Shown here piece by piece: positions 16,174 through 41,368 of a stretch of 41,368 nt of DNA (the stretch's first letter is position 1; each line of letters begins with the position of its first letter). Both the position numbers and the translations under genes were made by a program. The notes below the pieces were generated by a model. It worked only from the letters and a program-made list of their open reading frames with translations. It was not told the DNA's origin and did no database searches. This DNA is from a virus. Taxonomy: Duplodnaviria > Heunggongvirae > Uroviricota > Caudoviricetes. The stretch lies in IMG/VR virus record IMGVR_UViG_2671180984_000033. The stretch is one strand, 5' to 3'.

Positions 16174-16464
16174 ATGTCAAAGATATTCCGCCAATGTATG
16201 CCTTACGGTATCCGCAAAACAGCTGAGGGGGCTTGGGAAGCATTCAACAGAGACTACCAGCCCTTAGGGGAGGCTTTTTTCTTCAAAAGAGCACTAACGC
16301 AGGCCACTCGAGATGTGTTGGCGCCACCGCCGGTAACTCAGCGCGACGACTGTGTATGGCTGTATAGCGATATCGAGCACCCGATGCACTCTGAGGCTTA
16401 CTGGAAAGCGTATTGCCAGCGGCTTAAACATCTTTCTAACCTCAAAATGAAAGATGAACGGTAA
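16174..16464 (+). CDS. Hypothetical phage protein
   Basis: 96-aa ORF with GAGGA Shine-Dalgarno, between the origin-like region and Q. Confidence 0.45.
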   Translation: MSKIFRQCMPYGIRKTAEGAWEAFNRDYQPLGEAFFFKRALTQATRDVLAPPPVTQRDDCVWLYSDIEHPMHSEAYWKAYCQRLKHLSNLKMKDER

Positions 16465-16489
16465 GTAGCAAAACGTAGAGGTCAGAGCT

Positions 16490-16912
16490 ATGCGTGATAT
16501 TCGACTGGTTTTAGAGCGATGGGGGGGCTGGGCTGCGAGCGAAGGTTGCAGTGTCTACTATCCACCTGTTTCCGCTGGATTTAAGAATCTGCTACCTGCA
16601 ACGCAAGCCGGGCGGCTGAAGTGCAGTGACAATGACGGTCTGATCATCAGCTCTGCTATGAACTGCCTGAAGAAAAAAGATCCGTACCTGTGTACGCTCC
16701 TTGAGTGGCATTACATCCAGGCGATGCCTGTGAGGGCTATGGGTGTGAAGCTCGGCGTATCACACACTCAAGTTCTGAAGAGGCTCCAGGCTGCAGAGGG
16801 ATTTATCGACGGCTGCCTGGCTATGCTGGACGTGGTTCTGGAAATGGATCAAGCAGTTCAGTCAAAGCCTAAGGCTATCAGGACTTTGCGAAGGAGCTGC
16901 CCGGCGGCATAA
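16490..16912 (+). CDS. Late-gene antitermination protein Q-like
   Basis: N-terminal MRDIRLVLERWGGWAA resembles lambdoid Q-family proteins as I recall them; sits just upstream of the lysis cassette. Confidence 0.65.
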   Translation: MRDIRLVLERWGGWAASEGCSVYYPPVSAGFKNLLPATQAGRLKCSDNDGLIISSAMNCLKKKDPYLCTLLEWHYIQAMPVRAMGVKLGVSHTQVLKRLQAAEGFIDGCLAMLDVVLEMDQAVQSKPKAIRTLRRSCPAA

Positions 16913-17066
16913 TATCCAGTAATCAATCACGTAAGGGAATCAGATGGTATTCAGGATTGCCGTAAACACCTGACGGCTTCAGGTATCAAGGTAAGATAAA
17001 AAATAGTTGTGGAATTCCAAAAAGCCGATTAGCCTGATATCTGTTGAAAACAGTTCATCACGAAGA

Positions 17067-17090
17067 GGCTCCCGCAAGGGGGCCTTTTTT
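17067..17090 (+). terminator. Intrinsic terminator in the late leader (tR'-like)
   Basis: GGCTCCC-GCAA-GGGGGCC hairpin with GNRA-type loop followed by TTTTTT. Confidence 0.6.
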
Positions 17091-17320
17091 AATGCTCTAT
17101 TCTCAGTAAAAGTTAATAAAACAGGGTTTTCGTCGCGAAAAAACGCTATGCAGTTTTTGCCCTTTTTTATGCACCTTTTATTCACTCGAATTTCGTCATT
17201 TTGAACCACTTAAGTTGATTAAATAGGCCTTTCATCGCAAATCTATTGCGAGCGGGGATCGTGTGGTTCCTATAACGTACATTATGTTAAATAACTTCCT
17301 TTTTTAACAAATTTAACAAG

Positions 17321-32817: not shown

Positions 32818-33120
32818 ATGAAAGCCGTAGAAATCCCACTGGTTGCTGACAATCAGACTTTTGCCACCACAATTAACGGTTCGGTTTATCACCTGTCTGT
32901 CATCTGGCGAGGAGAGTACTGGGTTCTGGATCTTGCTGACAGCAATGGTTCCGCCATTATATCAGGTATACCGATGATTACGGGGGCTGACCTGCTGGCA
33001 CAGTATCGATATATGGATCTGGGTTTTTCTCTGGTGGTGCTTTGCGACGTGGCAGGGCAGGAGAGTCCGACGCAATTCGGTCTTGGAACGCTCTCACACC
33101 TCTATGTTTTCACGGAGTAA
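32818..33120 (+). CDS. Small tail/baseplate protein
   Basis: 100-aa ORF in the baseplate block. Confidence 0.45.
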   Translation: MKAVEIPLVADNQTFATTINGSVYHLSVIWRGEYWVLDLADSNGSAIISGIPMITGADLLAQYRYMDLGFSLVVLCDVAGQESPTQFGLGTLSHLYVFTE

Positions 33121-33122
33121 CA

Positions 33123-34154
33123 ATGTCGAAAAACTGGATGCGTCACTTTGAATTATTGCTTGTTGATGATAAGGGCGACGGGATAAAAATTTCTGAGCTT
33201 AAAGTCACTTTCAATATTCAGAAAATGCCTGCGACCATATTTAATGGATTCGTTGGGAATTTTAAGGTTTATAACCTGTCCCCTACCACTCAGAACCGGA
33301 TTATGCAGAAGGAGTTTTCGCGTATACAGGTTATTGCCGGATACAAGGGGCAACCGGATGCAGCAGGTAATTATCCTGATGAAAACGTTGGCATGATATT
33401 CAATGGAGATATCCGTTTTACTGTCACTGGTAAAGATAATGCCACAGACAGTTGGATCATATTGCAGTGTATTGACAGTTGGGAAGGCCACCTGAACGCA
33501 AGTGTGAAAACCACAGTGGCAGCTGGCTGGAAGTACAGCGATCTTTTCAGTCTGGGTATGAAATCATTCGAACCATATGGCATCGAATCCGGCGCAGTTC
33601 CTGACATGCCTGAAACGGTATTTCCCCGAGGCCGCGTTGTTTATCAAAACACATCAAGGTTGATGAATCATATCGCAGGGCAGTGTAAAGCTAACTGGTG
33701 GTATGAAAATAATCTGGTAAATATTGTTCCTGAAGATAAATATATTGGTGTTGCTACGGTGTTGAATGCTAACACCGGGCTTATCGGTATGCCACAGCAG
33801 ACGATGGGAGCTGGCGTAAATGTCAGATGTCTGATTAATCCAAATATTAAGCTGGGTGGACTTATTCGTCTGGATCAGGCATCCGTATACCGTGCCTCTT
33901 TGAGTAATGACCAGGTAGCGAAATCGCCAGCACGACTGGATGAGTCTGAAAGCGACGGTAATCTCTACGTTAACGGTCTGCCAGGCATGTCACAGCCTGC
34001 CAGTATTAATACTGACGGTGATTACATTGTGGGCAGCATTGATTATACTGGCGACACCCGAGGGCAGGCGTGGTATATGGACCTGCTTTGCCTGGCTAAA
34101 GGTGGCAAAGAATTGCTTAACTCGAAAGGGATTGATGCGGCGAAATACACATGA
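33123..34154 (+). CDS. Baseplate hub-like protein
   Basis: ATG at 33123 directly after the previous stop (track start 33042 overlaps the upstream gene). Confidence 0.45.
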   Translation: MSKNWMRHFELLLVDDKGDGIKISELKVTFNIQKMPATIFNGFVGNFKVYNLSPTTQNRIMQKEFSRIQVIAGYKGQPDAAGNYPDENVGMIFNGDIRFTVTGKDNATDSWIILQCIDSWEGHLNASVKTTVAAGWKYSDLFSLGMKSFEPYGIESGAVPDMPETVFPRGRVVYQNTSRLMNHIAGQCKANWWYENNLVNIVPEDKYIGVATVLNANTGLIGMPQQTMGAGVNVRCLINPNIKLGGLIRLDQASVYRASLSNDQVAKSPARLDESESDGNLYVNGLPGMSQPASINTDGDYIVGSIDYTGDTRGQAWYMDLLCLAKGGKELLNSKGIDAAKYT

Positions 34155-34486
34155 AAAGACCATTGTTGACAGTTTTACTTGTCTGTATCTCCTTCATTTC
34201 CTTTGCTGATACCGGTTGCGGACCATTTACGATCAACTGGAAAGCGCAAGACGGACTTGCAAGGATTAATGGACAGAAACCGGAGACACAGAAAATCATC
34301 TTTCTCAAACAGGAAGGTGATTATGACAATGTGAACATCCAATGGATGATTCCGGGTAATGGGCGTTGGTTAGGGATGGATTTTGTGGCCAGAAATGGCA
34401 AGCCGATCCTCAACGTTGAAGTTATCCGCAAAAATATGGACGACCCTCGGGAGTTCTGGACGTATGATTGCCGGAAGGTGAAGTGA
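34151..34486 (+). CDS. Small secreted protein (accessory gene)
   Basis: 111 aa; N-terminal signal peptide (MKRPLLTVLLVCISFISFA); start overlaps the upstream stop (ATGA); lower GC than the tail genes. Confidence 0.5.
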   Translation: MKRPLLTVLLVCISFISFADTGCGPFTINWKAQDGLARINGQKPETQKIIFLKQEGDYDNVNIQWMIPGNGRWLGMDFVARNGKPILNVEVIRKNMDDPREFWTYDCRKVK

Positions 34487-34575
34487 GTTTGACGTTGTTT
34501 AGACAACCAGACAATTGGTGTTAAACTGCGTAGGTATTACCATTTCCAGACCAAAGATGAAAGCTAGCGTCGAAC

Positions 34576-35376
34576 ATGCAACCAAAAACACAAAAATCCA
34601 GGGATATTAAAACAGTTAATCGGGTTGTTATGACCCTGCGACCTTACTTGTGTTTTGAGCAGGATATTACCGTTTTTGTTAAAGAACGAACTGCTAAGCA
34701 GATCGAAGAGATTCAGGACCCGGGGCTAAAATGCTCTGCATTATCCTTTTTCTACTTCACCCTAGGAGATATCGAGCGCGGTAAATATTATGCGGAAGAA
34801 ATGTTGAGATATCTACCTACAGATACTGTCGCATGGAGGAACTATAATCTGGGTTTGTTCTGGTGCAGTGGAGCAGTCGAGGCTTTAAATGTGGCTAAGC
34901 GTGGATTCGATGCTACCAGTAGCCCAATTTTGGCTTGTGACGCATATTACTATTCATCTTCAGTTGCGGATTTTTCATGCTTTCTGGAAATGCGCGAGTT
35001 CCTTTTGCGTACAGAAATGTATGAGAAATTCATAGAGCAAGACCGGGAGTCAGATATGTTGCGGAGTCTGGAGTATGCAAATATAGCCAGTCGGTACAAC
35101 AAAGAGGATGTGATTAAAAATATCTCAGCTTTGATGTATGAAAAACTGGATTTGGTGCAAAAACTGAACTCTGCAGTCCGTCTGCTTGATGTTACTGAGG
35201 ACGGTGAAGATCCAGAGCTTATTTTTGAAATGTATGTAAACAATGCTGATGCAGCAACATGCGCAGCCATGAATGTTGAGCTTATTTCAGCTCGCGTGCG
35301 TTCTGGATTAACTGACTGGAGTGTAGGAGGCGTTTATGTCGCTCATAATAAAGAGGACATGTTGCAATGCCAGTAA
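34576..35376 (+). CDS. Hypothetical protein, first gene of an overlapping pair (accessory cassette)
   Basis: 266 aa, helical, with no tail-protein character; preceded by an 89-bp gap; low GC. Confidence 0.5.
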   Translation: MQPKTQKSRDIKTVNRVVMTLRPYLCFEQDITVFVKERTAKQIEEIQDPGLKCSALSFFYFTLGDIERGKYYAEEMLRYLPTDTVAWRNYNLGLFWCSGAVEALNVAKRGFDATSSPILACDAYYYSSSVADFSCFLEMREFLLRTEMYEKFIEQDRESDMLRSLEYANIASRYNKEDVIKNISALMYEKLDLVQKLNSAVRLLDVTEDGEDPELIFEMYVNNADAATCAAMNVELISARVRSGLTDWSVGGVYVAHNKEDMLQCQ

Positions 35377-35747
35377 CACCAAGGGATTTTCTTGCCATGG
35401 CTTCTGATGCACCTGTTTCTGATGAAATGCTTAATCGAAATGCTGTTAGCAGGGCGTATTATTCCAGCTATTTACATGTTAATGAAAAAGTGACTGCTTT
35501 GAATTTGCCGCTTCCCAAAGTAAATGGCGGTGTACACGCCCGTTTGATCAGTGGTCTGAATAATGGGGCGTACAGTGACTTAAATAACGGAATAAGTCAT
35601 GATGCGCAGCTTGAAATTGCAGGGTTACTTAGTTTGTCAAAGCAGCTCAGAACAAAGGCTGATTATAAGTTACACATGACTATCAATAACACGGATAAAG
35701 CCACAGCGATAGCGAATGCTAAAGCGGTCTTTGAATTGCTTCCATAG
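35367..35747 (+). CDS. Hypothetical protein, second gene of the overlapping pair
   Basis: 126 aa; 10-nt overlap with the upstream ORF; followed by a strong terminator. Confidence 0.5.
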   Translation: MPVTPRDFLAMASDAPVSDEMLNRNAVSRAYYSSYLHVNEKVTALNLPLPKVNGGVHARLISGLNNGAYSDLNNGISHDAQLEIAGLLSLSKQLRTKADYKLHMTINNTDKATAIANAKAVFELLP

Positions 35748-35773
35748 CCATGGAAAGAACATTAGCCACATTA

Positions 35774-35803
35774 AACCCGCCTTCGAGCGGGTTTTTTGCT
35801 TTT
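35774..35803 (+). terminator. Intrinsic terminator closing the accessory cassette
   Basis: AACCCGC-CTTCGA-GCGGGTT hairpin followed by TTTTTTGCTTTTT. Confidence 0.6.
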
Positions 35804-35816
35804 TGGAGACATATGA

Positions 35817-36569
35817 ATGCCCGTTTCTTTAAGCGCTCAACTTGGTAGCAAAGAACAGGCCGATGTAAGACTTGCTGGTTCTGTCATGTCGACGCTGCGC
35901 GTTTCTATGCCTGGCATCGTCCAGTCATTTGATCCGGACACGGTAACGGTAGTTGTTCAACCAGCGATTAAAGGCTATGAGCCGGACTCAAATGGAATCA
36001 ACCAGTCGACGATATTACCCTTGCTGGTGGATGTGCCAGTGGTATTCCCGCGCGGCGGAGGATGCACGCTAACGTTCCCAGTTAAAGCCGGTGATGAATG
36101 TTTGGTGATTTTTGCCGATCGTTGTATTGATTTCTGGTGGCAGAGTGGCGGGATACAGGAGTCGGTCGATGATCGAATGCATGATTTATCGGATGCGTTT
36201 TGTATTGTCGGTCCCCAGTCGCAGGCAAGGAAGATTAGCGGTATTAATACCAGTGCCACACAGTTGCGTAGTGACGACGGCAGCACCTATTTTGAGCTTA
36301 ATCCTGATACCCGGAAAATTAAAATTGTCGCTCCGGGGGGGCTTGATGTGGTTGCCCCCCTGGCTGATTTTTCTGAGAAAGTAACCATTCATGGCCTGTT
36401 AACCTGGATGGGGGGCATGGTGGGGTCTGTTGTTTCTGGTGTGGCTTCAAAAATCACTGGTGCTGTTGAGTTTTTGGGTAGCGTGAAGGCTAACGGCAAG
36501 CCAATCGATGATACGCACACTCATGGTGGTGTTCAGCGCGGTGGAAGCAATACCGACGGAGTAAACTGA
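35817..36569 (+). CDS. Baseplate spike protein (gpV / Mu gp45-like)
   Basis: 250 aa; C-terminal THTHGG HxH motif typical of spike apex metal sites. Confidence 0.6.
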   Translation: MPVSLSAQLGSKEQADVRLAGSVMSTLRVSMPGIVQSFDPDTVTVVVQPAIKGYEPDSNGINQSTILPLLVDVPVVFPRGGGCTLTFPVKAGDECLVIFADRCIDFWWQSGGIQESVDDRMHDLSDAFCIVGPQSQARKISGINTSATQLRSDDGSTYFELNPDTRKIKIVAPGGLDVVAPLADFSEKVTIHGLLTWMGGMVGSVVSGVASKITGAVEFLGSVKANGKPIDDTHTHGGVQRGGSNTDGVN

Positions 36570-38798: not shown

Positions 38799-39646
38799 TG
38801 GCAAAAAATGACTTTAAAGCATTCGCAACGGGTAAAAATGCCAATGTTATGTCGCAGGAGGAATGGGAAGCGTTGCCTGCGCTTTTATCCGGATTTACAG
38901 CAGGGAAAGCCTCCAGTGCGCAAGTCAATAAGGTTATTCGGCAGGCCAGCTTTATTGCTGCAGCTCTGGCCCAGTTTGTAAGTGATAAAACGCAACGGGA
39001 TGTGCTTGATAATGGTGATCTGCCCGGTTTTGTTGAATTGCTGGGATCGGGGTTTGCTGTTGAATACCTGAGCCGCAAGAATCCGTTTGGCGATATCAAA
39101 TCGGATGGCACGGTGAAAATGGCTCTCGAAAACCTTGGTTTAGGAGAAGGCTCAGCATTGCCTGTTGGCGTACCTGTTCCGTGGCCCTCAGCCACTCCGC
39201 CAACAGGCTGGCTAAAATGCAACGGAGCAGCTTTTTCTGCTGAAGAATACCCGGAACTGGCAAAGGCTTACCCGACAAATAAATTGCCTGATTTACGTGG
39301 TGAGTTTATTCGTGGCTGGGATGACGGACGTGGTATGGATACGGGGAGGGCAATATTATCAGCTCAGGGCGATGCCATACGTAATATCTATGGTGAGTTC
39401 AGAACTGTAAACACTGAAAATTATTCAATATGGGAAACAGTAGGCTCGTTTAAGGGGGCCATAGTGCCATTGAGTCCCTCTACAAACAATAGTTATTTCT
39501 CCTTAACCAGAAGTATGGTGACAGAAAGAGCAGACGGCGCTGTTTACCCAAAAGTGATTGGCCTTGATGCTTCAAGAATTGTTCCAACTGCAAACGAAAA
39601 CCGTCCTCGTAACATTGCCTTTAATTATATCGTGAGGGCTGCCTGA
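38780..39646 (+). CDS. Tail fibre protein (constant N-terminal part plus currently expressed variable C-terminus)
   Basis: C-terminal [17 protein letters not shown] motif characteristic of Mu/P1/e14-type fibre tips; contains a crossover-site-like sequence at its LGLGE codons. Confidence 0.75.
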
Positions 39647-40251
39647 TGAATAAAGCGGTATTAAATAACGAACTCATTGCTATAAAAGCGGGAGACATTA
39701 CCATTTATAATTATGATGGTGAAACGCGGGAATATATTTCCACATCAACTGAATATCTTGCTGTGGGTGTCGGTATCCCGGCATGTTCCTGTTTAGATGC
39801 TCCTGGCTCATATAAAGCTGGTTATGCAATCTGCCGTTCTGCAGATTTTAACTCATGGGAATATGTGCCAGACCATCGCGGTGAAGTTGTCTATAACACC
39901 GAAACGGGAGAATCAAAAGAAATCACAGCTCCGGGTGATTACCCTGAAAATACAACCACTATCGTCCCGTTAACGCCATACGATAAATGGGATGGTGAGA
40001 AATGGGTGACAGATACTGAGGCACAGCATAATGCCGCAGTAGACGCGGCAGAAGCACAGCGCCAGTCACTGATTGATGCAGCAATGGCTTCCATCAGTCT
40101 GATTCAGCTGAAATTACAGGCCAGACGTAAACTGACGCAGGCAGAAACAACCCGACTAAACGCTGTGCTGGATTACATTGACGCGGTGATGGCAACGGAT
40201 ACCAGCACCGCGCCGGTGGTTATCTGGCCAGTTCCTCCTGAGACGGTTTAA
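39646..40251 (+). CDS. Tail fibre assembly protein
   Basis: 201-aa ORF immediately after the fibre gene. Confidence 0.7.
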   Translation: MNKAVLNNELIAIKAGDITIYNYDGETREYISTSTEYLAVGVGIPACSCLDAPGSYKAGYAICRSADFNSWEYVPDHRGEVVYNTETGESKEITAPGDYPENTTTIVPLTPYDKWDGEKWVTDTEAQHNAAVDAAEAQRQSLIDAAMASISLIQLKLQARRKLTQAETTRLNAVLDYIDAVMATDTSTAPVVIWPVPPETV

Positions 40252-40441
40252 TCTCAATCAGAATGGGTTCGCCCTTCTCGTTAACAGATATTTCCATTCC
40301 TTCAGGGATTTCAGATGCAGTAAAAAACCAGTTATCTTCTGGTAATTCAACAGCCCCGGTCACGTCATGAAGACCGGGGATTACTTCAGTCAAAGTAACA
40401 GGATTAAACAGGCGCACAATAAACCCTCCAGGAAAAAGCAT
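40220..40441 (-). CDS. Alternative tail fibre assembly protein in inverted orientation (short)
   Basis: 73-aa minus-strand ORF downstream of the alternative fibre C-terminus, inside the invertible segment. Confidence 0.45.
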   Translation of the reverse strand: MLFPGGFIVRLFNPVTLTEVIPGLHDVTGAVELPEDNWFFTASEIPEGMEISVNEKGEPILIEIKPSQEELAR

Positions 40442-40787
40442 TTATTGATGGTGTTCCGTCGTACATCTGGCAGCGGACATAAAAACCGGTATTAGTGACC
40501 TGGTCATCCACGATCATTGAAACGTGAACGTTATTAGATGTGCCCCCATAATCCGTTCCTATTCTTTCCGCTATGCTGATAAAACGTGAAAGCTTAGGTA
40601 GCGCAATAGGATAAACGACTTTAGCCAGTCCATTATTATTAGAACCACCCGTCCCAAAGACTTCTATTGCACCATCTGACCAGCGTATCCATGCACCATT
40701 GGCATTAGCTCCTCGCTGAATGACATATCTGGCTTCTCCCAAACCAACGTTTATGAAAATGCAGAAATAACGAGCAAATGGCATCAT
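40404..40787 (-). CDS. Alternative tail fibre C-terminal variable segment (inverted, currently not fused)
   Basis: Minus-strand ORF carrying GLGE at the crossover-like site, matching ENLGLGE in the plus-strand fibre; residues upstream of the site are probably not a real N-terminus. Confidence 0.55.
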   Translation of the reverse strand: MMPFARYFCIFINVGLGEARYVIQRGANANGAWIRWSDGAIEVFGTGGSNNNGLAKVVYPIALPKLSRFISIAERIGTDYGGTSNNVHVSMIVDDQVTNTGFYVRCQMYDGTPSINAFSWRVYCAPV

Positions 40788-40813
40788 TCCTGCTTTTGTC
40801 AGGGAGATCTACC

Positions 40814-41368
40814 ATGCTTATTGGCTATGTACGTGTGTCAACAAATGACCAGAACACAGATCTACAACGTAATGCGCTGAACTGTGCAGGATGCGAGCTG
40901 ATTTTTGAAGACAAGATAAGCGGTACAAAGTCCGAAAGGCCGGGGCTGAAAAAACTGCTCAGGACATTATCGGCAGGTGACACTCTGGTTGTCTGGAAGC
41001 TGGATCGGCTGGGGCGTAGTATGCGGCATCTGGTCATTCTGGTTGAGGAGTTGCGCGAACGTGGCGTTAATTTTCGCAGCCTGACGGATGCTATTGATAC
41101 CAGCACACCGATGGGGCGTTTTTTCTTTCATGTGATGGGGGCCCTGGCTGAAATGGAACGAGAACTGATTGTTGAACGAACAAAAGCTGGACTGGAGGCT
41201 GCTCGCGCACAGGGACGAATTGGTGGACGTCGTCCCAAACTTACACCAGAACAATGGGCGCAGGCCGGGCGATTAATTGCATCAGGAGTTCCTCGCCTGA
41301 AGGTAGCGATCATCTATGATGTTGGCATATCGACTTTGTATAAGAGGTTTCCGGTGGGAGATAAATGA
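40814..41368 (+). CDS. Serine DNA invertase, Gin/Pin/Hin family
   Basis: MLIGYVRVSTNDQNTDLQRNAL...LVVWKLDRLGRSM...FRSLTD closely matches Gin/Pin as I recall them; ATG 40814 has an AGGGAG Shine-Dalgarno (track start 40778 is upstream in frame). Confidence 0.9.
   Translation: MLIGYVRVSTNDQNTDLQRNALNCAGCELIFEDKISGTKSERPGLKKLLRTLSAGDTLVVWKLDRLGRSMRHLVILVEELRERGVNFRSLTDAIDTSTPMGRFFFHVMGALAEMERELIVERTKAGLEAARAQGRIGGRRPKLTPEQWAQAGRLIASGVPRLKVAIIYDVGISTLYKRFPVGDK

Follow-up and report, generated by a model that had tools for sequence, protein, structure and literature searches.

A two-gene cassette encoding a HEPN-fold protein and a TPR-like partner in a variable cargo slot of an E. coli prophage baseplate module

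The window analysed here, the whole 41,368-nucleotide stretch of the IMG/VR record IMGVR_UViG_2671180984_000033, is 100% identical to E. coli EH2252. All features described below are on the plus strand. The baseplate hub gene at 33042-34154 (phrog_196 baseplate hub, E=2.7e-80; Pfam E217_GP41, E=2e-7) is an annotated CDS in EH2252, with its start placed at about 33123 by RefSeq, and forms the left structural flank of a cargo slot. It is followed by p111 (34151-34486; 111 aa; phrog_3443, E=6e-42), which is resident at the first position of the slot, overlaps the hub stop by 4 nt and has a product with a signal peptide at the N-terminus. After an intergenic gap of 89 bp (34487-34575), two genes with ATG start codons were found, gene A (34576-35376; 266 aa) and gene B (35367-35747; 126 aa), whose reading frames share 10 nt and whose products are both annotated as 'hypothetical protein' in the RefSeq entry of EH2252. 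An intrinsic terminator (35773-35804; AAACCCGCC-TTCGAG-CGGGTTT plus a T-run) lies about 13 nt upstream of the start codon of the membrane-puncturing spike gene (35817-36569), the right structural flank, which was recognized by its Pfam spike N-terminal domain (E=1.4e-43), an Apex motif and the RefSeq annotation. The hairpin of the terminator (35773-35794) has a stem of 8 bp including five GC pairs and is directly followed by TTTGCTTTTT. The sizes of the two frames, their overlap and the upstream gap agree with an earlier note on this DNA made from the letters alone. The same note had described the order of hub and spike as broken by two ORFs; cargo does interrupt the structural block, but a third non-hub ORF, p111, had been overlooked.

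The cassette has a GC content of 42.1% (GC3 40% and 37%), compared to 44.9% for the hub gene, 44.9% for p111, 50.5% for the spike gene and 52% for the structural block. Thus, the visibly lower GC claimed for the two genes is clear against the downstream genes, but amounts to only about three points against the genes immediately upstream. Within the 89-bp gap, a sigma-70-like match was detected at 34500-34527 (TAGACA-16-TAAACT with an extended -10 TG, 9/12 positions), a candidate moron promoter. However, the whole 2.2-kb region contains seven such matches versus 4.2 +/- 2.1 in shuffled sequences, so that this site alone is not significant. Moreover, the region upstream of A is not conserved across divergent homologous cassettes, in which no shared promoter was found. 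The promoter suspected earlier in this gap therefore has a matching site, though a weak and unconserved one, and it is conceivable that A and B are expressed only late, together with the tail operon. An Rfam search of positions 34000-36000 gave no match. Antitermination by Q, reading through the slot terminator, was also considered for this prophage and is unsupported, since no Q gene is annotated in it; only a Serratia relative was seen to have one.

To place the cassette, 83 related hub-spike loci were surveyed. The hub gene directly adjoins the spike gene in about 22 of them, p111 stands alone between the two in four, and 57 carry cargo of 0.4-3.3 kb. This cargo falls into 66 ORF clusters, more than half of which lack any annotation, confirming that the content of the junction varies across related prophages. 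p111 is found in most of the relatives with cargo and is missing where hub and spike adjoin. The same type of terminator hairpin precedes the spike gene in nearly all cargo-bearing loci, irrespective of the cargo, and also in the loci with p111 only. Hence, the strong terminator seen in the earlier analysis is real, but it is the conserved right border of the slot and not an element specific to the cassette. The order in this E217/Pam3-type myovirus prophage of E. coli is hub, p111, cargo, terminator, spike. While the flanking spike family is present in 309 of 5,426 complete E. coli genomes, the cassette occurs in five of the same 5,426. A and B are accessory cargo and not parts of the tail.

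Several genes found in this slot in relatives of the prophage belong to known defence or toxin-antitoxin (TA) systems, namely PD-Lambda-1 (E=5e-83), Mrr_cat/PDC-S02, PDC-S42, Phd together with Doc, and YafO. This company, which bears out the TA- or defence-like layout proposed for the two genes, is no more than suggestive of a defence role of A and B by association. Other cargo comprises a P22-type antirepressor and secreted small proteins. A C1-type pair appeared abundant in the index (1,485 blocks), yet it was present in only two of the 5,426 complete E. coli genomes. The slot resembles phage morons and the prophage defence hotspots (PMC9122126) known, for example, from P2 and P4 in being a variable accessory locus amid conserved phage genes, with foreign GC, its own terminator and cargo in which defence genes mix with TA genes. 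By contrast, the P2/P4 hotspots belong to another phage lineage and occupy another position, whereas this slot lies between hub and spike of the E217/Pam3-type baseplate module. Our literature search found no paper describing it there.

To characterize the pair itself, 74 unique homologous loci were compared, and residue and identity statistics were calculated from 47 diverse pairs. A and B are strictly linked: of 80 viral contigs in which a B-like gene occurs, it is immediately preceded by an A-like ORF in about 72. The two genes overlap by 1-20 nt in 67 of the 74 unique pairs, a terminator follows the pair in 66 of the 74, and the GC content is below that of the flanks in 71 of 72 pairs, with a mean difference of 9.3 points. 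The layout of the pair is thus not a matter of chance. Across the 47 pairs, A diverges faster than B (mean identity 21% versus 33%), and the distances among A proteins and among B proteins correlate closely (r=0.92; Mantel 0/2000); such co-divergence is expected for any two tightly linked genes. Homologues of A have about 245-275 aa and a median pI of 4.9, those of B are neutral to basic (median pI 7.8). Co-oriented, coupled genes with an acidic partner upstream of a neutral or basic one are the arrangement of type II-like TA loci, and in their sequence profiles A appears antitoxin-like and B toxin-like.

The pair is not confined to the hub-spike junction. It lies between lysis and terminase genes at one locus (L148), after DUF6246 in sipho-type tail clusters at two others (L140, L178), in a nin-like region of Klebsiella phage Chronis (gp57/58) and after the tape-measure gene of Acinetobacter phage B1251. 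A Nitrospinae locus (L175) is the sole context outside phages. Chronis and the Acinetobacter Vieuvirus were isolated by lytic propagation; prophages carrying the pair occur in E. coli, Klebsiella, Enterobacter, Serratia and Acinetobacter baumannii. The module is mobile: phages of Enterobacterales and Acinetobacter carry it at several different sites. Yersinia phage YP3, a further candidate for an isolated carrier, was discarded: its record is rearranged, its B gene is an orphan and truncated, and its 'virion structural protein' is a duplicated plug gene and not A. No single system in PADLOC-DB v2 was matched by both A and B, distant A-like and B-like proteins behaved in the same way, and the accessions of A and B were not found in the parts of the DefensePredictor supplements that were consulted. 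The term 'undescribed system' used in the earlier note is appropriate insofar as no library model or paper covering the pair was found, but the HEPN type of B is a known one.

An AF2 model of B (pLDDT 93) gave 2hsb (AF_0298) as the best Foldseek match (probability 1.0, TM 0.69) at a sequence identity of only 15%; HepT toxins came next and most of the other top-ranked matches were HEPN toxins. A PDB profile search returned 9xbd, a 'HEPN domain-containing protein' (E=9e-4), with SRAYY, the histidine and LR..DY aligned. In PADLOC, the sole match of B was HEPN_IX (E=2e-6), which is partial and covers only residues 18-65. A Pfam search with B itself yielded no match, and its distant relatives, the most remote profile matches, contain PF05168 or are named UPF0332 in IMG. 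As modelled, B is a HEPN four-helix up-and-down bundle, in line with the HEPN-type relationship suspected before.

The residues held responsible for this relationship were different ones. The earlier note had pointed to SRAYYSSYLH (residues 28-37) and RTKADYKLH (residues 95-103, followed by H104) and had found them loosely reminiscent of HEPN-type R-x(4-6)-H proteins, with an R-to-H spacing of 7 outside the canonical range (R95-x7-H104). This motif is wrong, since H104 is not conserved and reads H, N, S, D, R or E even in close homologues; H37 in the first stretch is likewise not conserved. By contrast, E20, R24, S28, Y31, Y32, H57, R95, D99 and Y100 are invariant (100%) in the 47 pairs, at a mean identity of 33%. 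A canonical Rx4-6H motif is absent from B: the motif position reads R95-T-K-A-D-Y100, with Tyr100 in the place of the canonical histidine, and the only nearby histidine is the variable H104 (x8). In the model, H57 is located in an insert (residues 45-77) between the helices 20-44 and 78-100. In AF0298-like HEPN-T proteins, the motif arginine is kept, the motif histidine is lost and an alternative, strongly conserved histidine resides in the insert that separates helix 2 from helix 3 (PMC3710099). Judged from the conservation of R95 and H57 in all 47 homologues, the constellation H57 plus R95-x3-D99-Y100 is such an AF0298-like alternative HEPN site, and B is predicted to be an RNase with His57 and Arg95 in its active site.

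Protein A is acidic (pI 4.8). Its larger part (about residues 1-198) is made up of TPR-like helical repeats, and an orphan domain of beta-beta-alpha-beta topology follows at the C-terminus (about residues 200-257). Its fold is a TPR-like helical-hairpin solenoid, even though the family models are far from recognizing it: the best TPR model, TPR_MalT, reached E=0.17 and 11.5 bits versus a cut-off of 45, and PDB profile matches to designed TPR proteins had E values of at least 0.007. The C-terminal domain used alone as a profile query found no match, and neither did A in PADLOC. We also considered whether A is a cryptic MNT nucleotidyltransferase. No match to NTase families was obtained in Pfam or NCBIfam, a conserved Gly/Ser/Asp constellation is missing, and no conserved polar or catalytic residues are present among the 47 pairs, so that, together with the TPR-like fold and the orphan domain, this assignment was rejected. 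A is a TPR-like protein of a previously unnamed family. Profile and structure searches have thus given a HEPN fold for B and a repeat protein with an orphan domain for A.

Compared to known systems, B shares with the AF0298-like HEPN-T proteins (UPF0332/COG2250 type, 2hsb) the fold, the retained arginine, the lost motif histidine and the second histidine, corresponding to H57. These proteins are the toxin half of many MNT-HEPN dyads, whereas the partner of B is a protein of about 250-275 aa with a TPR-like region and an orphan domain. HepT/MntA (type VII, e.g. SO_3166/SO_3165 of Shewanella) is similar to A-B in its layout, with the gene of a small HEPN toxin downstream of its overlapping neutralising partner. 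However, HepT/MntA is characterized by the RX4HXY motif, including the AMPylated tyrosine, and by the MNT signature (G[GS]...DxD); the former is lacking in B and the latter in A. With no MNT beside B, neutralisation by AMPylation lacks a basis.

The HEPN protein of type IX retrons (Retron-Kva2) also lacks Rx4-6H and uses a conserved histidine and arginine located at its dimer interface. Toxic by itself, it cleaves rRNA and tRNA, H64 and R122 are required for both toxicity and defence, and a partner protein wraps the HEPN protein as an antitoxin (preprint 10.64898/2026.07.14.738597). The neighbours of B are hub, p111, A and spike; a reverse transcriptase, an msDNA-coding ncRNA and a winged-helix partner were not found near it. 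As neither reverse transcriptase nor ncRNA is present at the locus, A-B was rejected as a member of the retrons. HepS of Gifsy-1 (Salmonella) and Tha/Ith of S. aureus phages are further examples of HEPN RNases carried as prophage accessory genes. Both abort infections by other phages and are triggered by phage tail proteins, Tha having a cognate small inhibitor, Ith (PMC13043305, PMC11087260). Unlike B, they are single, larger proteins with a canonical Rx4H, built-in sensor regions and other genome positions, and no sequence relationship to B was detected. Links between HEPN nucleases and helical-repeat proteins in conflict systems have been reported for AbiU2, which occurs with a Sel1-repeat gene, and for LA2681, which is either fused to TPR or shares an operon with it (PMC3710099), but both have kept Rx4-6H. 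The AbiU2 models in PADLOC matched neither A nor B. AbiV, which has an RNA antitoxin and a motif of its own, was rejected as well.

Taken together, A-B is probably a mobile TA-like or abortive-infection moron with B for its toxin and A for the inhibitor or the sensor, and the interpretation given in the earlier note is partly supported. A would be translated just before B through translational coupling. B, presumably a dimer as other HEPN enzymes, would use a site formed by His57 and Arg95 with E20, R24 and D99 nearby. In the fashion of type II antitoxins, A may bind the HEPN dimer and occlude its RNA cleft, and might in addition act as a sensor on which the release of B depends. When a second phage infects, or when A is lost or titrated, B would be set free and could then cleave tRNA or rRNA, resulting in cell arrest and thereby in abortive infection or prophage addiction. 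Several points stand against this moron reading. The canonical Rx4-6H is absent from B, and part of the AF0298-type HEPN proteins might bind without catalysis. Neither Pfam, NCBIfam nor the model shows in A the DNA-binding domain (HTH, RHH or AbrB) that type II antitoxins typically have. The candidate promoter is weak and unconserved, and the slot also holds cargo unrelated to defence.

It is tempting to go further, though we regard this as a tentative idea that may well not hold: A-B could represent an unrecognised, widely spread two-component abortive-infection family, in which a TPR-like sensor-inhibitor restrains a His/Arg HEPN RNase and releases it on recognising an incoming phage protein, and the junction of hub, p111, cargo, terminator and spike could be an undescribed defence hotspot of E217/Pam3-type prophages whose unannotated cargo (clusters C6+C3, C2, C5, C11 with YafO, C13 with RNNLFH, C16, C17 and C22) comprises further candidate systems. 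If confirmed, a non-enzymatic repeat protein would be a new type of HEPN toxin regulator beside the MNT AMPylase, the RNA antitoxin and the retron complex, and B would be a second, independent functional case of a non-canonical HEPN site made of histidine and arginine. The slot, bounded by conserved hub and p111 on one side and terminator and spike on the other and holding the validated PD-Lambda-1, is a practical resource for discovery. Due to the presence of the module in prophages of clinically relevant hosts from E. coli to A. baumannii, it could, if confirmed, also affect the host range in phage therapy.

A plain addiction pair, which stabilises the prophage or propagates itself by post-segregational killing and does not exclude phages, would have the same anatomy, i.e. 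overlapping genes, the first of them encoding the acidic partner, and a HEPN site that does not vary. It would also fit the classical TA pairs Phd/Doc and YafO in the same slot and the non-phage chromosomal context of L175. We nevertheless hold it to be rather unlikely, as the pair resides overwhelmingly in accessory slots of temperate phages beside validated defence genes, and A, with its size of 245-275 aa and its repeat-type interaction domain, resembles a sensor more than the usual labile antitoxin. A role in defence is by now established for many TA systems, and the addiction and defence readings are therefore compatible.

A function that benefits the phage in lytic growth, such as counter-defence or remodelling of host RNA, with B as a regulated RNase or RNA/nucleotide binder and A as its specificity factor, is improbable. 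The position of A-B inside the late tail operon, whose orientation they share, an internal promoter that is only a candidate, and the occurrence in lytically propagated phages would suit it. On the other hand, morons expressed in the lysogen typically show what is seen here, namely a patchy occurrence in a single phage lineage, low GC and a terminator of their own, and the slot is shared with genes for defence and TA rather than with known anti-defence genes.

There is little to suggest that B is a catalytically inert HEPN-fold adaptor, in which case the pair would not be toxic, or the real effector would be A, possibly by way of the domain at its C-terminus. It is true that the canonical motif is missing and that HEPN domains in nucleotidyltransferases also serve as non-catalytic binding modules (PMC3710099). 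Against an adaptor stands the full conservation of nine residues, His, Arg, Asp and Tyr among them, at the low overall identity of B, and catalysis by the HEPN protein of type IX retrons depends on the same kind of histidine-arginine site (preprint 10.64898/2026.07.14.738597). Against an effector role of A stands its lack of conserved polar residues and of any enzyme-like fold match. Finally, that A and B are virion or assembly components, for instance a TPR-like chaperone for the hub-spike complex, is highly improbable and largely refuted by distribution: as the earlier note had judged, neither protein looks like a part of the virion, since the pair is missing from the great majority of phages with the same hub and spike, where unrelated genes take its place, it also occurs at non-tail sites and at a non-phage locus, and its composition is foreign to its surroundings.

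The chromosome segment of E. coli EH2252 matches the window at 100% identity. It begins in host genes (rseB to yfhL) and continues into a prophage with a contractile tail of the E217/Pam3 type, whose tail genes include DUF3383 sheath, DUF3277 tube, tape measure, Dit-like, plug, hub, spike, sheath initiator, baseplate J and fibres. Between hub and spike lie gene A (34576-35376, plus strand, 266 aa) and gene B (35367-35747, plus strand, 126 aa), both hypothetical in RefSeq and overlapping by 10 nt. ORF calls and inspection of the hairpin confirmed the layout described in the earlier note, i.e. two overlapping genes preceded by an 89-bp gap (34487-34575) and followed by an intrinsic terminator with an 8-bp GC-rich hairpin and a T-run (35773-35804). 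In the gap, a single weak match to a sigma-70-like site (34500-34527, -10 extended) is a candidate promoter. For a 106-aa antisense ORF inside gene A (34950-35270, minus strand), no evidence of gene status was found. The reduced GC content of the cassette (42.1%) holds against the spike gene (50.5%) and the structural block (52%), while the contrast with the genes immediately upstream, hub and p111 (44.9% each), is small. p111 (34151-34486), an ORF absent from the note, starts 4 nt within the end of hub and encodes a 111-aa signal-peptide protein matching phrog_3443.

The cassette DNA occurs in five of 5,426 complete E. coli genomes, the flanking spike family in 309. According to the RefSeq annotation, the junction of other spike-family genomes contains Phd/YefM and Doc, DUF4282, or TPR and thioredoxin-domain proteins. 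To compare the junction across related prophages, as had been suggested, 80 spike-protein loci from other species were fetched and hub, p111 and spike were located in each. Hub directly abuts spike in about 22 loci and four contain p111 without further cargo, while 57 carry cargo of 0.4-3.3 kb after p111 (seven of them directly after hub), comprising 66 ORF clusters. Representatives of the cargo matched PD-Lambda-1 (E=5e-83), Mrr_cat nucleases/PDC-S02, PDC-S42, Phd and Doc, the YafO toxin, a P22-type antirepressor and a ClpP-like protease. Due to this variety, which includes known toxin-antitoxin (TA) and defence families, the junction is a hotspot for morons (phage accessory genes) or defence genes, and the cassette seen to interrupt the baseplate block is one allele of it, albeit the commonest single cargo when counted by locus in the species sample. 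The slot is newly recognized here; an incomplete literature search found no description of it. p111 is present in most cargo-bearing relatives and missing where hub abuts spike. p111 could act as a moron at the surface or in the periplasm; secreted, paralogue-like ORFs (clusters C7, C27 and C63) are extra cargo in some loci.

Almost every cargo-bearing locus, irrespective of its cargo, has a hairpin of the type AACCCGC-loop-GCGGGTTTTTT within the tail operon, 10-25 nt ahead of the spike start codon. The hairpin was also detected in the p111-only loci and is absent where hub abuts spike (loci compared: the window and L010-L089). Thus, the strong terminator exists as proposed but belongs to the slot and not to the cassette. 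The hairpin may also be a recombination anchor for cargo exchange. No Q antiterminator is annotated in this prophage, though the terminator directly precedes spike.

Distant B-like genes in the same slot (L041, L053, L059, L012, L072) are each preceded by a gene for a 243-263-aa protein. The relationship of these proteins to A was established with an A profile (E of 1e-6 to 1e-7 for P0029 and P0032 in a search of 1.84 billion proteins), and local HMM scores agreed. Of 80 viral contigs retrieved through the B alignment, about 72 have an A-superfamily ORF immediately upstream of B. The two genes overlap by 1-20 nt in 67 of 74 unique pairs and are followed by a terminator in 66; their GC content is below that of the flanks in 71 of 72, on average by 9.3 points. 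A-A and B-B distances are correlated (r=0.92, Mantel 0/2000) which, since any two linked genes would correlate, reflects co-inheritance without partner swapping and is no proof of contact. The pair also occurs in sipho-type tail clusters, where it follows DUF6246 (L140, L178), next to a T7-like terminase (L130), in L148 with lysozyme/spanin genes on one side and HNH/terminase genes on the other, and on a Nitrospinae metagenome contig, flanked by a PAS histidine kinase and by metabolic genes (L175). Intact A-like and B-like genes were found in the nin-like early region of Klebsiella phage vB_Kpn_Chronis (gp57/gp58, L181 2267-3423) and, in Acinetobacter phage YMC/09/02/B1251 (orf440/450, L182 2178-3315), right behind the tape-measure gene. 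Both phages are isolated and propagatable, and thus ready experimental handles. The many insertion sites, including the non-phage context of L175, characterize the pair as an autonomous, mobile two-gene module. In Yersinia phage YP3 (L180, PV092592.1 29093-36473), two near-identical baseplate plug gene copies precede an orphan, C-terminally shortened B homologue, which is directly followed by a baseplate J gene; A, spike and sheath initiator are missing there, and the record looks rearranged or misassembled.

Protein B revealed no Pfam match. It did match phrog_5176, a family of unknown function (E=2e-22), and there was a weak match to PADLOC HEPN_IX (residues 18-65, E=2e-6). Judging by its name and by what is published on retrons, the latter model appears to represent the type IX retron HEPN effector. 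When nine homologues were combined into a profile, it found the solved "HEPN domain-containing protein" 9xbd (E=9e-4), with SRAYY, the His and LR..DY aligned. The AF2 model, a helical bundle (pLDDT 93), has its best PDB match in AF_0298 (2hsb; probability 1.0, TM 0.69); the HepT toxins known from HEPN-MNT systems come next. A wider profile search yielded 115 clusters, most from Enterobacterales and some named UPF0332 or HEPN by their sources; the most distant ones carry PF05168. The HEPN character suspected in the earlier note is thereby upheld, its R-x7-H motif (R95/H104) is not, because position 104 is H, N, S, D, R or E even among close homologues. Invariant in 47 pairs (mean identity 33%) are E20, R24, S28, Y31, Y32, H57, R95, D99 and Y100. 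Y100 takes the exact position of the Rx4H His, and H57 lies in an insert between the helices 20-44 and 78-100. B therefore has the fold and belongs to the AF0298-like subfamily of HEPN proteins, and lacks the canonical motif. In AF0298-like HEPN-T proteins the motif retains its Arg but lacks its His, and another conserved His, located N-terminal to it, has been proposed as an alternative active site (PMC3710099), exactly the pattern of H57 and R95. According to a July 2026 preprint, the HEPN effector of type IX retrons, likewise devoid of Rx4-6H, cleaves rRNA and tRNA, requires H64 and R122 at its dimer interface for both toxicity and defence, and is attenuated by a partner protein wrapped around it (10.64898/2026.07.14.738597). 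This sets an experimental precedent, from a different system, for a His and Arg HEPN site as a working RNase. The invariant Tyr100 could be catalytic, structural or a modification site, as in the Y-to-F variant structure 9xbc.

A has no match in Pfam, NCBIfam or PADLOC, and its similarity to TPR stays below threshold. Its family is tiny: 5.8 billion proteins contained six clusters at 90% identity, and a profile retrieved 17 representatives from 1.84 billion. The AF2 model (pLDDT 85) gave a helical-hairpin repeat (residues 1-198) and a small beta-beta-alpha-beta domain (about 200-257). Across 47 homologues no residue is conserved to at least 90%; the proteins are uniformly acidic (pI 4.6-6.0, net charge -11 here) and diverge faster than B (mean identity 21% versus 33%). 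A is therefore neither an MNT nor another recognizable enzyme, and looks like a binding protein. It is the obligately linked upstream partner of B, translationally coupled and non-catalytic.

The pair is accessory, includes a HEPN fold and resides among defence and TA genes. It is rather probable that it acts in a TA-like or abortive infection (Abi) manner, a reading that covers anti-phage activity as well as mere addiction. B would dimerize and cleave cellular RNA, while A would bind B and block its cleft like an antitoxin; the repeat domain of A may recognize a phage product, in which case infection would release B. Functionally closest are the WH protein of Retron-Kva2, which is wrapped around its HEPN, the Tha/Ith pair of S. 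aureus prophages and HepS of Gifsy-1. A lytic-cycle function benefiting the phage is a lesser alternative in view of the neighbouring cargo. So is an inert HEPN adaptor; the alternative catalytic constellation of B is intact and under strong purifying selection. A structural or chaperone role is essentially excluded by the distribution. The pair differs from HepT/MntA (type VII) by lacking MNT and RX4HXY, and from type IX retrons in that neither an RT nor an ncRNA is present; no system in PADLOC was matched. Associations of HEPN with TPR/Sel1 proteins are known from comparative genomics (AbiU2, LA2681), but for motif-bearing HEPN families (PMC3710099). The incomplete literature search yielded no paper on the pair. 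We classify it as a HEPN module of putative toxin function whose partner represents a new family and whose location is a newly recognized prophage hotspot.

Other cargo of the slot deserves mention. An ORF of 170-173 aa with the motif R-N-N-L-F-H, sole cargo in Escherichia phage vB_EcoM-611R5 (L003 4232-4744) and in L011 (5342-5863), has no Pfam or PADLOC match and, judging by its motif, may be a different, canonical HEPN cargo. Recurrent clusters are C6+C3 (a 143-aa protein and a coiled-coil/TM protein), C2 (reverse strand), C5, C11 (upstream of the YafO toxin, no match in the family-library scan), C16, C17 and C22, all candidates for further accessory or defence functions (L046, L049, L055, L057, L058 (Photorhabdus); L025, L051, L052, L069; L006/L008; L013/L043; L040/L072).

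Elsewhere in the prophage, a DNA polymerase, a DEAD-box helicase and VRR-NUC are among the products of the replication module. An IS1 transposase adjoining a truncated Nmad5-family gene lies between this module and the lysis module (about 16200-17150; L179 24223-25163), so the prophage may be defective. A PinE/Gin-type invertase beside opposed tail-fibre-assembly gene fragments (39646-41368) probably marks an invertible host-range segment.
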